64,000 nt of DNA from NCBI RefSeq assembly GCF_056712565.1, contig NZ_CM160072.1. One strand, written 5' to 3'. Shown piece after piece: positions 1 through 4,473 of this stretch; position 1 is the stretch's first letter; each line of letters begins with the position of its first letter. The position numbers were made by a program, and so were the translations under genes. Under the pieces are notes generated by a model. That model ran no database searches, was not told where the DNA came from, and was given only the letters and a program-made list of their open reading frames with translations.

Positions 1-206
1 CACTGTCATGGAGCACTATCGACCGTATGGAGCGCGCAGGGGAATTTCCTAAACGCTGGTATATCACTGACAAACGCTGCGCATGGAACCGTGACGAAGT
101 TGAGCGTTGGCTTGATGAACGTCAGGCAGCAAGCCCGGCAGAGTTCCAGGGTAAAAAACCTCCTGTTCAGCAACGTGTATATCGTCCCGTGAGCAACGCT
201 GCATGA
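1..206 (+). CDS. AlpA-family phage transcriptional regulator / excisionase-like HTH protein, 5'-partial (runs off window start)
   Basis: Frame from nt 3 translates ...LSWSTIDRMERAGEFPKRWYITDKRCAWNRDEVERWLDERQ...VSNAA, stop TGA at 204-206. The GEFPK...W...DEVE.WL pattern is typical of AlpA-type regulators of P4-like elements. Not in the ORF track because the start lies outside the window. Confidence 0.5.
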   Translation, partial: LSWSTIDRMERAGEFPKRWYITDKRCAWNRDEVERWLDERQAASPAEFQGKKPPVQQRVYRPVSNAA

Positions 207-315
207 GTGCGCTGCTAAGGCACTGGAGCAAATGGTCAGGATGGTACTTATTCCTGGCCTCTGTTTCAGCATGGCTTTATCTGCTGGCATTAATTTTCAG
301 AGAGGGTTGGATTAA

Positions 316-615
316 GTGAGAAAGTTAAGCCGACTTGAAAAATATCACATGAATAAGGTTTCAATGCGCAGTCCGTCAAAGATTGTCGCCGTTACTCCTG
401 CGGCGATAGAGATCGAAAAACGCGCGATTGAAAGAGAGAAAAAAGGGCAATTCCGCATTGCCGCTCACCTTTGGCTTCAGTGTATGGATGTTGCTTCTGG
501 TGATGTTGAACGTGCAAGGATCGCGGTTCGCAGGGACCAATGTATCACAAAAGGTAACGGCCTTCGCCGTGGCGACTATAGCGGCATAGGATGTTGTGGG
601 GTGGTTTATGACTAA
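316..615 (+). CDS. hypothetical protein of integrative element
   Basis: 99-aa ORF from the track, GTG at 316 preceded by AGAGGG; internal ATGs at 349 and 364 are alternative starts. No recognisable motif. Sits between the AlpA-like gene and the methyltransferase, same strand. Confidence 0.3.
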   Translation: MRKLSRLEKYHMNKVSMRSPSKIVAVTPAAIEIEKRAIEREKKGQFRIAAHLWLQCMDVASGDVERARIAVRRDQCITKGNGLRRGDYSGIGCCGVVYD

Positions 616-1258
616 GAAATACACACTAATCTATGCAGATCCACCCTGGGTATACCGGGACAAAGCCGCAGATGGTAATCGCGGTGCCGGTTTTAAATAT
701 CCGGTTATGAGTGTGCTGGATATCTGCCGCCTTCCTGTGTGGGATTTGGCCGATGAAAACTGTCTGTTGGCCATGTGGTGGGTGCCAACACAACCACTCG
801 AAGCACTAAAAGTTGTTGAAGCCTGGGGATTCCGTCTGATGACGATGAAGGGCTTCACGTGGATAAAATGTGGTAGTCGACAACCAGATAAACTGGTTAT
901 GGGTATGGGACACATGACTCGCGCCAATAGTGAAGATTGCCTGTTTGCGGTAAAGGGAAAACTACCTACGCGCATTAATGCAGGGATCGTTCAGTCATTT
1001 ACCGCACCGCGGCTTGAGCATTCAAGAAAGCCAGATATCGTTCGTGAAAAACTTGTGCAATTATTAGGCGATGTTTCTCGCATTGAACTGTTCGCCCGCC
1101 AGACGTCTCATGGCTTCGATGTTTGGGGTAATCAGTGCGAAGACCCGGCAGTGCAACTACACCCTGGATACGCGTTGGATATTGGCGGATTAACAAATGC
1201 ATTCAGCAATGCTCCGCTGTCACCAACAGACATCCAGGGGCGGGAGCGTGCTGCATGA
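608..1258 (+). CDS. MT-A70 family DNA N6-adenine methyltransferase (phage-type orphan methylase)
   Basis: Translation MTKKYTLIYADPPW... contains the DPPW catalytic motif of MT-A70 adenine methyltransferases. ATG at 608 preceded by GGGGTGG; the track ORF starts 12 nt earlier at a GTG. Confidence 0.7.
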   Translation: MTKKYTLIYADPPWVYRDKAADGNRGAGFKYPVMSVLDICRLPVWDLADENCLLAMWWVPTQPLEALKVVEAWGFRLMTMKGFTWIKCGSRQPDKLVMGMGHMTRANSEDCLFAVKGKLPTRINAGIVQSFTAPRLEHSRKPDIVREKLVQLLGDVSRIELFARQTSHGFDVWGNQCEDPAVQLHPGYALDIGGLTNAFSNAPLSPTDIQGRERAA

Positions 1259-1449
1259 ACAGGGCATCACCAGCAGATTTAAGAAAATGCCTTGAAACTG
1301 CAAACATGCTTGCACACAGCGGGATCAGGTTTGTTCCAATTCCCGCTGTCACTGATGCTGAATTTGCAACACTGTCAGCAATATTCGAAAACAAAATTGA
1401 ATCACTGGCAGCAGAAGCAGAGATGGAAGAAAATCAGCAGAACTATTAA
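1255..1449 (+). CDS. small phage-associated hypothetical protein
   Basis: ATG overlaps the methyltransferase stop (ATGA, translational coupling). 64 aa, MNRASPADLRKCLETANMLAHSGIRFVPIPAVTDAEF...; lies between the methylase and the integrase. The 104-aa track ORF (1135..1449) is a longer in-frame form overlapping the methylase. Confidence 0.4.
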   Translation: MNRASPADLRKCLETANMLAHSGIRFVPIPAVTDAEFATLSAIFENKIESLAAEAEMEENQQNY

Positions 1450-1452
1450 ACG

Positions 1453-2703
1453 TTATTCCCCCGCCATCCACTTCTCAAACTTCGACGGGGAGAACGGAAT
1501 CAGATCCGTATGCTCCCCGTCAATCCATGAATCAATCATATCGGCCCACTGCTGCAACATGTAGGCGCGCTGTCTGGCGTATTCCGCTTTGTTATATACG
1601 GCGCTCACACCTTTCTGCTCATGTGCCAGAGCCTTTTCAATCCAGTCTGAAGGATAACCAGCCTCATGCAACAACGTACTGGCTGTACGGCGCATATCGT
1701 GTACGGTGAAGCCCTGAATATGCTCACCATCTTCATTTATTATTTTCACCGTTCTGTCGATCAGAGAGTTCAGCGCGGCATTAGATAATGGCTTCCGGAA
1801 ATTGTAACGACCAGGAACCAGATATTCACTTCCACCAGCGCACATCTGCAACCCAACCAATATATCCTGTGCCTGTTTAGGCAGGTAAATAACGTGCGCC
1901 CGGCTTCCCTTCATGCGGTCTGGAGGAATTGTCCATGTCCATTTTTTAAAATCTATTTCATCCCACGTTGCATTGGTGAATTCGCCCTTACGAACCATAG
2001 TGATAAGCACCAGTTTTAAAGCCATTTTCATAGTGCCCATAGCACCAATGGCATCCAGCGTGCGGAAGAACAGGCCAATTTCTTCTGGTGTCAGTGTTCG
2101 CTCTCGTGGTTTAAATATGGCGATAGACGAAGGTTTAATGTCAGCCGCAGGATTAAACAAACCATGACCACGGTCATTGGCGTGACGGTATACGCTACTG
2201 ATGATCTCCCTGGCCTGCACTGCTGTTGCCCGGCCACCGCGTTCGACAATCCGGTCACACAAATCACGAACCATTGATGTGGTAATTTCAGCCATCATTT
2301 TATTGCCAAGAACCGGAAGTATGTCACGGTCGATCACCGCCTGTTTCATTGCGCGGGTACTGTCAGCCAGGATGACGTGTTTCATATAACTGTCGGTATG
2401 TACCGCAAACGTCTCGGCACCACGAATCTTTTTGATACCGTCACGTTTAGCCGCAGCCGGTGACTGGCCTGCTTTAAGCAGCTTCTTTGCAGCAATCAGT
2501 TCTTCTCGCGCTTCTGCCAGGCTGATACCGTCACGCCCATACTGCCCGATTACCAGTGTTTCGCGGCGACCGTTGATACGGTAGTCATAGCGAAACGAGA
2601 CCGTGCCTGACGTAAGCACAGCTACATACAGCCCGTCACGATCGGAGACCTTGTACAGTTTGTCCTGCGGCTTGAGATTTTTTAATTTTGTATCGGTAAG
2701 CAC
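1453..2703 (-). CDS. int: tyrosine-type site-specific integrase (P4-like family)
   Basis: 416 aa, N-terminus (M)LTDTKLKNLKP..., C-terminal catalytic region ...HDMRRTASTLLHEAG...KALAHEQKGVSAVYNKAEY with the R..H..R..Y signature. Start codon is GTG. Positioned at the edge of the element next to guaA. Confidence 0.85.
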   Translation of the reverse strand: MLTDTKLKNLKPQDKLYKVSDRDGLYVAVLTSGTVSFRYDYRINGRRETLVIGQYGRDGISLAEAREELIAAKKLLKAGQSPAAAKRDGIKKIRGAETFAVHTDSYMKHVILADSTRAMKQAVIDRDILPVLGNKMMAEITTSMVRDLCDRIVERGGRATAVQAREIISSVYRHANDRGHGLFNPAADIKPSSIAIFKPRERTLTPEEIGLFFRTLDAIGAMGTMKMALKLVLITMVRKGEFTNATWDEIDFKKWTWTIPPDRMKGSRAHVIYLPKQAQDILVGLQMCAGGSEYLVPGRYNFRKPLSNAALNSLIDRTVKIINEDGEHIQGFTVHDMRRTASTLLHEAGYPSDWIEKALAHEQKGVSAVYNKAEYARQRAYMLQQWADMIDSWIDGEHTDLIPFSPSKFEKWMAGE

Positions 2704-2811
2704 AATTCACCCGTATAGAAACCATTTTCATGACGGTATGAGAGTATACCTTTAAGGTAATACCGTCACCTGTACCGACGAAAAATATGGTGTAGAGTGA
2801 ATAGAAATGAA

Positions 2812-2848
2812 TACATAAAAACAAAAACCCTCTGTAAAAACAGAGGGT
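2812..2848 (-). terminator. Rho-independent terminator downstream of guaA
   Basis: Hairpin ccctctg-taaaaa-cagaggg, followed on the minus strand by TTTTTGTTTTT, about 50 nt past the guaA stop. Confidence 0.5.
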
Positions 2849-2895
2849 TAAATTAGTATCTGAATAGGAATGAGTTGCTATGAGTTAGCTGTTAA

Positions 2896-4473
2896 TCATT
2901 CCCACTCAATAGTTGCTGGTGGCTTGCCGCTGATGTCATACACCACGCGGGAAATACCATTCACTTCATTGATAATGCGGTTGGAAACGCGGCCGAGGAA
3001 GTCGTACGGCAGATGTGCCCAGTGTGCGGTCATAAAGTCGATGGTTTCGACAGCACGCAGAGAGACAACCCAGTCATACTTACGACCATCGCCCATTACG
3101 CCAACGGAACGTACTGGCAAGAAGACGGTGAACGCCTGGCTGACTTTGTCGTACAGGTCCGCTTTACGCAGTTCTTCAATGAAGATGGCGTCAGCACGGC
3201 GCAGCAGGTCACAATACTCTTTCTTCACTTCTCCCAGAACACGAACGCCAAGGCCTGGTCCCGGGAACGGGTGACGGTACAACATGTCATACGGTAGGCC
3301 CAGCTCCAGACCAATCTTACGCACTTCGTCTTTGAACAGCTCTTTCAGCGGTTCAACCAGGCCCATCTTCATCTCTTTCGGCAGGCCACCCACGTTGTGG
3401 TGAGATTTGATGACGTGTGCTTTACCGGTTGCAGAAGCAGCAGATTCGATAACGTCAGGGTAGATGGTGCCCTGCGCCAGCCACTTCACGTCTTCCAGTT
3501 TCAGCGCTTCTTCATCGAATACTTCAACGAAAACGCGACCGATAATTTTACGTTTTGCTTCCGGATCGTTTTCGCCAGCCAGCGCTGACAAGAAGCGATC
3601 TTCTGCCGGTACGTGAACAATGTTCAGACCAAAGTGATCGCCAAACATATCCAGAACCTGCTCTGCTTCGTTGAGACGCAGCAGGCCGTTGTCGACGAAT
3701 ACGCAAGTCAGGTTTTTACCGATAGCGCGGTGCAACAGCATTGCGGTAACGGAGGAATCCACGCCACCAGAGAGGCCGAGGATGACTTTATCGTCGCCCA
3801 CTTGCTCGCGGATGCGGGCTACAGCGTCGTCGATAATTTTCGCTGGCGTCCACAGGGCTTCACACTGGCAGATATCACGCACAAAACGCTCCAGCATGCG
3901 CATACCCTGGCGGGTGTGAGTCACTTCCGGGTGGAACTGTACGCCATAGAAGCGTTTTTCTTCGTTGGCCATGATGGCAAACGGGCAGCTTTCGGTGCTG
4001 GCTACGGTGACGAAGTCGGACGGGATAGCGGTAACTTTATCGCCGTGGCTCATCCAGACGTCCAGCAGCGGTTTACCATCTGCGGTCAGCGCATCTTCGA
4101 TACCGCGAACCAGTGCGCTGTCGTTTACGACTTCAACCTGCGCGTAGCCAAATTCACGTTCGTTAGAGGCTTCAACGTGACCGCCCAACTGCATTGCCAT
4201 GGTCTGCATGCCATAGCAAACGCCGAATACCGGTACGCCTGCTTCAAAGACATACTGCGGCGCACGCGGGCTGTTTTCTTCGGTGGTGCTTTCCGGGCCG
4301 CCGGAAAGAATAATGCCGCTTGGATTGAAGTCACGAATTTGTGCTTCTGTCACATCCCACGCCCACAGTTCGCAGTAAACACCCAGCTCACGCACGCGGC
4401 GCGCAACCAGTTGAGTGTACTGAGAACCGAAGTCCAGAATGAGGATGCGATGCTTATGAATGTTTTCCGTCAT
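2896..4473 (-). CDS. guaA: GMP synthase (glutamine-hydrolysing)
   Basis: 525 aa; [36 protein letters not shown]... through ...[11 protein letters not shown] start. Confidence 0.97.

Follow-up and report, generated by a model that had tools for sequence, protein, structure and literature searches.

An orphan MT-A70 family methyltransferase in the early-left operon of an epsilon15-like Escherichia coli prophage, likely a DNA adenine methyltransferase

We analysed a window of 64,000 nucleotides (NCBI RefSeq assembly GCF_056712565.1, contig NZ_CM160072.1), and its first part contains an orphan MT-A70 family methyltransferase gene that belongs to the early-left operon of a prophage (Table 1). The open reading frame is confirmed as real, since the evidence for it exceeds chance by far, and the gene is already known under the RefSeq name 'MT-A70 family methyltransferase' (WP_024187597.1), where it starts at ATG 608; the earliest possible start is GTG 596. 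On balance, and with a confidence slightly above even, we suggest that it encodes a stand-alone phage DNA N6-adenine methyltransferase of the beta class (MT-A70 clade), probably specific for GATC, which would act as a mimic of Dam. The gene is an ordinary, widespread and annotated prophage gene, its phage methyltransferase family has characterised members, and it therefore carries little weight as a discovery. It bears on a dispute over its closest relative, which has been described as a GATC DNA methyltransferase and, in combination with the protein PNB-2, as the first rRNA methyltransferase from a prophage. The common allele found here comes without PNB-2 and without the tail of the STEC type, and is thus a natural control for the catalytic subunit alone in this dispute.

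Table 1. Features at the start of the window
Feature	Position	Strand	Details
AlpA-like HTH gene, 3' part (excisionase-type regulator)	1..206	+	cut by window start
PerC-like small regulator	316..615	+	99 aa from GTG 316; RefSeq form 83 aa from ATG 364
MT-A70 family (beta-class) N6-adenine methyltransferase	608..1258	+	216 aa, intact ORF
DPPW catalytic motif IV codons	638..649	+	residues 11-14; GAT CCA CCC TGG read from sequence
DUF1382 small ORF	1255..1449	+	64 aa; Pfam PF07131 E 1.8e-30
Prophage tyrosine integrase	1453..2703	-	Pfam Arm-DNA-bind_3, Phage_int_M, Phage_integrase; convergent with methyltransferase operon
Right attachment region	2704..2910		phage-borne terminator hairpin 2826-2849 and last five guaA codons 2896-2910

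The preliminary description had called the gene a methylase of the MT-A70 type with a DPPW motif, and homology searches upheld this family call. The protein matched all 172 positions of the Pfam MT-A70 profile (PF05063; E 2.6e-22; score 80 bits, curated cut-off 23.9 bits) and PHROG 359 'DNA methyltransferase' at E 3e-120, and PADLOC classified it as a Type II methyltransferase (MTase_II, E 2.7e-77); among the NCBIfam profiles, there was no model covering the protein. The order of the motifs is that of the beta class, with DPPW at residues 11-14 followed by SRKP at 139-142, ELFAR at 160-164 and WGNQ at 173-176, and DPPW, S-x-K-P, ELFAR and WGNQ align with those of Tetrahymena MTA1. When the PDB was searched by sequence, MTA1 was the best match (E 4e-13), followed by METTL3 (E 6e-6) and then METTL4. 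The AlphaFold model, which rests on a shallow alignment and is of moderate quality only (pLDDT 66, pTM 0.69), gave METTL3, MTA1 and METTL4 as the top PDB matches in Foldseek with probability 1.00 and TM of about 0.6, at an identity of only 18-25% in the fold alignments. Based on the whole-profile match, the motif order and the METTL3/MTA1-type Rossmann-like fold of this moderate-quality model, the protein is a member of the MT-A70 family, whose relatives form 12,100 clusters (50% identity, E up to 1e-3) and whose homologs occur in 516 phage records.

The protein consists of a conserved catalytic core (residues 1-187) and a variable tail (residues 188-216) that is modelled with low confidence. 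In an alignment of 15 homologs, P12 and W14 were invariant and D11 was nearly so, and the DPPW, KGFTW, SEDCLFA, SRKP, ELFAR and WGNQ blocks were all invariant or nearly so. The pN/pS value of the core was 0.16 among 52 unique alleles from related loci, indicating that the gene is kept by selection, whereas that of the tail was 0.875. The last 29 residues, for which the pLDDT is below 50, could not be aligned with the Stx-phage form. Prophages at guaA in Salmonella and Enterobacter have the same type of tail; we considered it as a conserved interaction motif, but claim no function for it in view of its near-neutral pN/pS and low pLDDT. We also considered that the gene might be a decaying, non-functional passenger, as lysogens often do not transcribe their prophage methyltransferase genes and the tail evolves almost neutrally. 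However, the ORF was intact in 87 of the 89 loci examined, the catalytic motifs and the core are under the constraint described above, and the segment (window 1-2900) is carried by 553 (about 10%) of the 5426 complete genomes of E. coli, with at least 80% of its length covered in 531 of these 553, so that this explanation is very unlikely.

No restriction endonuclease accompanies the methyltransferase. An orphan status had been proposed from the 1.4 kb visible at first, where no restriction-enzyme candidate was noticed, and it held when the search was extended: window 1-2900 contains no nuclease gene, and no restriction endonuclease is annotated in the whole 41.6-kb prophage of E. coli GPEC1337, to which window bases 1-2900 are 100% identical. 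Upstream of the methyltransferase, GPEC1337 carries the PerC-like, AlpA-like, RecT and DUF3799 genes, and the sole nearby nuclease is the DUF3799 PD-(D/E)XK protein, whose gene overlaps RecT. Together with RecT, this protein makes up an exonuclease/annealase pair of the kind usual in phage recombination, and we therefore ruled it out as the missing restriction enzyme. Neither of the two ORFs flanking the methyltransferase gave a match in PADLOC. These results support that the methyltransferase is a solitary enzyme with no cognate nuclease in the prophage.

A different arrangement is seen elsewhere in the family. In an Enterobacter hormaechei prophage at guaA (L007 3498-4025) and in Klebsiella phage KO-TP1 (L092 1983-2510), the MT-A70 gene overlaps at its start with a PDDEXK_5 nuclease-like gene, and the two could form a nuclease-methyltransferase couple there. 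This overlap, together with the Type II class given by PADLOC, speaks for the gene as the methyltransferase component of a restriction-modification system with its nuclease elsewhere in the element. However, a PDDEXK_5 homolog was not found in the window or in the upstream prophage stretch, and the annotation of the whole prophage offers no candidate besides the DUF3799 protein overlapping RecT. A restriction-modification pair is thus effectively refuted at the present locus, and we give it almost no chance.

The preliminary description had also placed the methylase in a phage context, and the GPEC1337 match bears this out, since the counterpart of the window start falls within the 41.6-kb prophage, which has epsilon15-like (Uetakevirus-type) structural genes. 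Its early-left operon encodes, in order, a cI-like HTH protein, two small ORFs, the DUF3799 PD-(D/E)XK protein, RecT, the AlpA-like HTH protein, the PerC-like protein, the MT-A70 methyltransferase and DUF1382, so that the methyltransferase is the second-to-last gene. At the right end, window 2704-2900 is identical to the junction of tandem prophage copies in GPEC1337, and by direct reading the identity extends to about position 2910. The last five guaA codons read IEWE-stop, and guaA and guaB lie beyond the integrase. Since the phage DNA carries these codons and the terminator hairpin, it integrates at the 3' end of guaA, where it restores both the gene end and the terminator. In the GPEC1337 record, a second integrase-DUF1382-MT-A70 set (1350143-1352238; L090 20144-22001) lies behind the first copy's lysis genes, and the assembly thus holds two tandem prophage copies at guaA with their junction at L090 19780-20157, either as a true double lysogen or as an assembly effect. 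For the prophage tailspike, which lies outside the window (L090 14383-17502), the annotation as an endosialidase suggests K1 (polysialic acid) capsule specificity of the phage.

The genes around the methyltransferase are densely packed. The full-length AlpA-like protein of 82 aa, taken from the upstream prophage sequence, matched Pfam Phage_AlpA at E 3.1e-5, in agreement with the RefSeq annotation. The PerC-like ORF matched Pfam PerC at E 6e-7 and PHROG 868 'transcriptional activator' at E 5.7e-62 over residues 1-99, and RefSeq labels it 'PerC family transcriptional regulator'; this protein, whose prophage comes from an E. coli isolate of a chicken, also matched the ANR family below the threshold. 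Its stop codon (TAA 613-615) and the methyltransferase start (ATG 608-610) overlap by 8 nt, a feature absent from the preliminary description. In one assembly, the PerC and MT-A70 domains lie in a single predicted protein of 297 aa (P0003), which, given the 8-nt overlap, is probably a frameshift or gene-calling artefact. On the other side, the stop codons of DUF1382 and the integrase are separated by 3 nt (window 1447-1455), and no terminator was predicted between these convergent genes. Early-left transcription would therefore enter the integrase gene antisense, and this read-through could cause transcriptional interference.

The methylase had further been described as translationally coupled to the small downstream ORF through an ATGA overlap. 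The overlap itself is exact (ATG 1255-1257 of DUF1382, TGA 1256-1258 of the methyltransferase), but a specific partnership with DUF1382 did not stand when we compared the neighbours of the gene in 86 related loci. The downstream junction is nearly always ATGA, and it leads to DUF1382 in 42 loci, to a Ser/Thr phosphatase in 24, to a 59-aa coiled-coil protein in seven and to other genes in 13, and DUF1382 was therefore rejected as a dedicated partner. The upstream neighbour was PerC-like in 64 of the 86 loci and DndB-like in four; DUF1317-type and DUF1382 genes occurred in three loci each, PNB-2, phiTE_015 and a 220-aa protein of unknown function in two each, and PDDEXK_5, a 75-aa winged-helix protein, a methyltransferase-like protein of 160 aa and a ParB-HTH protein in one each, with other unknowns in the remaining two. 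Since the neighbours vary on both sides, the overlaps reflect tight phage operon packing and not a DUF1382 partnership.

The genes inserted beside the methyltransferase in its relatives are mostly of DNA-binding or DNA-modification types, and ParB_N-MT-A70 fusions were found in three of the ten long relatives scanned, and both observations favour a DNA role of the family. Based on the same neighbours, one may ask whether the bare MT-A70 protein is a plug-in module, for which the directly upstream nucleic-acid-binding gene sets the substrate and is swapped by cassette exchange; this we regard as rather improbable. The candidate partners, put forward with as much reserve, would be PNB-2, the 75-aa winged-helix protein, the DndB-like protein, the ParB-HTH protein and PDDEXK_5, as well as ParB_N in cis. 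If the module reading were true, phages would retarget one enzyme among GATC in DNA, other DNA and 16S rRNA, and the locus analysed here would be the ground state without a partner.

Some individual relatives show further arrangements. In Salmonella phage SPN1S (L004 2009-3004), the gene directly 5' of MT-A70 is DndB-like (Pfam E 1.3e-42; also by the PADLOC DndB model), and the same is seen in loci L037, L062 and L069, with no other dnd genes nearby. The order in KO-TP1 is an annotated queuine tRNA-ribosyltransferase, PDDEXK_5, MT-A70 and a second DNA methyltransferase. In a distant relative of 564 aa (P0153), a LAGLIDADG domain splits the MT-A70 match and looks like an intein or a homing-endonuclease insertion.

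The specificity of the enzyme, which the preliminary description had left open, can be narrowed by reports on relatives, from which GATC is the probable target of the present protein by homology. When BZS1 p32 of Serratia phage vB_SspM_BZS1 was expressed alone in a dam- strain, the DNA became resistant to MboI and sensitive to DpnI, indicating GATC methylation, and was still cut by HinfI and Hin1II (PMC7556043). The same paper cites M.EfaBMDam of Tn1549 as GATC-specific (PMC7556043). For M.EcoGV of E. coli O104:H4 (Fang et al. 2012), GATC methylation on overproduction is cited second-hand (PMC10810198); it is also entered as a Dam homolog, with GATC as its predicted specificity, and described as highly similar to M.EcoPA8orf6770P. 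Several points count against a GATC-DNA reading. First, purified M.EcoPA8orf6770P alone was almost inactive on dam- DNA in vitro, and in combination with PNB-2 its preference was for 16S rRNA. Second, the GATC result for M.EcoGV, as cited, comes from overproduction. Third, for a protein of 216 aa without an obvious target-recognition domain, sequence specificity is not self-evident. Finally, E. coli is already Dam+, and a GATC enzyme thus looks redundant in this host. The ratio of observed to expected GATC was 0.71 in the prophage and 0.75 in the flanking chromosome; there is no avoidance, and GATC avoidance or enrichment was set aside as uninformative on specificity.

The bare catalytic domain would also suit an adenine methyltransferase of relaxed sequence specificity, which, like M.EcoGII, would modify DNA and possibly RNA in many contexts and give broad anti-restriction cover. 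Non-specific phage or prophage adenine methyltransferases do occur in E. coli and Serratia, and the Stx-phage homolog alone shows weak, substrate-unspecific use of SAM on both DNA and RNA. However, the non-specific enzymes M.EcoGII/GI and OS31 p25 have been described as distinct from the MT-A70 enzymes, and the MT-A70 relatives that were tested methylate GATC only, as the sensitivity of BZS1 p32-modified DNA to HinfI and Hin1II illustrates (PMC7556043). Taking both sides together, we consider relaxed specificity unlikely.

The closest studied relative is M.EcoPA8orf6770P, gp5 of the Stx2a phage phiPA8 (Gong, Chakraborty & Koudelka, NAR 2023, PMC10810198). The purified protein alone gave near-background activity in vitro on DNA, including dam- DNA, and its weak use of SAM on DNA and RNA was not specific for the substrate (PMC10810198). 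Together with PNB-2, its preference was for 16S rRNA (more than 13-fold) and for 30S subunits, and the spontaneous induction of the prophage increased (PMC10810198). A change of DPPW to APPA in the Stx-phage homolog abolished complementation, and the authors suggest that the C-terminal 27 residues of the STEC type may be required for PNB-2 binding and the holoenzyme, and state that non-STEC variants lack PNB-2 (PMC10810198). A follow-up preprint gives candidate sites in 16S rRNA and terms the two-subunit enzyme unique to Stx2 phages. In a Stx2a-type phage, we found the terminator sequence of the authors at L003 2531-2561, just 5' of a 143-aa ORF that precedes the Stx methyltransferase, and this ORF is therefore PNB-2. 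The published mutagenic primer had no exact match in the fetched loci, which is explained by one synonymous flank difference and the designed mutations.

When we compared the present protein with those of Stx2a-type phages, the identity was 83-84% over residues 1-187, and the alignment failed after residue 187. By tblastn, PNB-2 occurs neither in the window nor in the 20 kb of prophage that precede it. The PerC-like protein gave no BLASTP alignment with PNB-2 and belongs to a different Pfam family, and it was ruled out as an equivalent of PNB-2. The locus thus has the related catalytic subunit of the two-subunit rRNA enzyme, but neither the upstream PNB-2 nor the STEC-type tail, and for this reason we do not assign the gene to that enzyme.

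It may still be asked whether the protein is the catalytic subunit of a 16S rRNA methyltransferase that, by itself or together with an unrecognised partner such as the PerC-like protein or DUF1382, tunes host ribosomes and prophage induction. The high identity of the core to an enzyme that with PNB-2 favours 16S rRNA and 30S subunits and increases induction (PMC10810198), the 16S rRNA sites proposed in the preprint, and the RNA enzymes METTL3 and METTL4 among the nearest solved structures are in line with this possibility, as is the overlap of both small flanking ORFs with the methyltransferase gene. On the contrary, the flanking genes are interchangeable on both sides among close relatives, the C-terminal 27 residues suggested for PNB-2 binding are replaced by an unrelated and almost neutrally evolving tail, and the best sequence match in the PDB is the DNA enzyme MTA1 and not METTL3. 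Considering also the absence of PNB-2 and its reported restriction to Stx2 phages, an rRNA substrate seems improbable for this allele. Given the rRNA claim for its closest studied relative, the term 'DNA methylase' is likely, but not settled, for the gene.

Based on these observations, we return to a solitary DNA methyltransferase of probable GATC specificity, a specificity borrowed from published homologs. The present analysis itself establishes the gene with its motifs and fold family, the purifying selection on it, the lack of a partner nuclease and the place in the operon, whereas we infer its timing and role as follows. The gene would stay silent during lysogeny and be expressed upon induction or infection, with transcription coming from the early-left promoter by read-through. 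A crude consensus scan found no sigma-70-like promoter in window 1-2900, which fits such read-through, and an internal promoter for lysogenic expression was rejected on the same scan, although as a weak negative. Once made, the enzyme would methylate the replicating phage DNA, and incidentally the host DNA, faster or more fully than host Dam does, and the progeny genomes would thereby be shielded from restriction enzymes that cut unmethylated sites. Beta-class enzymes are thought to work as dimers, and a homodimer is therefore plausible.

The present enzyme can be compared with four known systems. First, M.EcoPA8orf6770P and M.EcoGV share with it the MT-A70 subfamily, the DPPW motif, the integrase-proximal early region, DUF1382 downstream and the lack of a nuclease partner. 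However, the Stx phage encodes PNB-2, an HTH protein of 143 aa, directly upstream of its enzyme, which has another C-terminal tail, where the present gene has the PerC-like gene upstream and an unrelated tail; the phage here has no annotated Stx gene and is of the epsilon15-like podovirus type, in contrast to a Stx2a phage. Second, BZS1 p32, which has homologs in HK639, phiES15 and Klebsiella prophages, is likewise a phage-borne solitary MT-A70 enzyme encoded in the integrase-proximal region. The two proteins are 40% identical, and p32 has an insertion of about 23 residues after the KGFTW block that has no counterpart here. In BZS1, a small gene annotated as ANR-family lies directly 5' of MT-A70, and the PerC-like protein here is a sub-threshold ANR match; BLASTP detected no similarity between these two small upstream proteins. 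Third, the ciliate DNA 6mA enzymes MTA1/AMT1, the mRNA m6A enzyme METTL3-METTL14 and METTL4 have the same fold and catalytic motifs. These eukaryotic enzymes work only as heteromers, in which a catalytically dead paralog and accessory DNA- or RNA-binding subunits take part, whereas no paralog is encoded here. Finally, E. coli Dam and the phage Dam enzymes of the T4, P1 and VT2/933W types are probable functional analogs, being solitary GATC m6A methyltransferases, also of phages of Dam+ hosts. They belong to the alpha class and have no sequence homology with the beta-class enzyme described here, so that a shared specificity would be convergent (PMC7556043).
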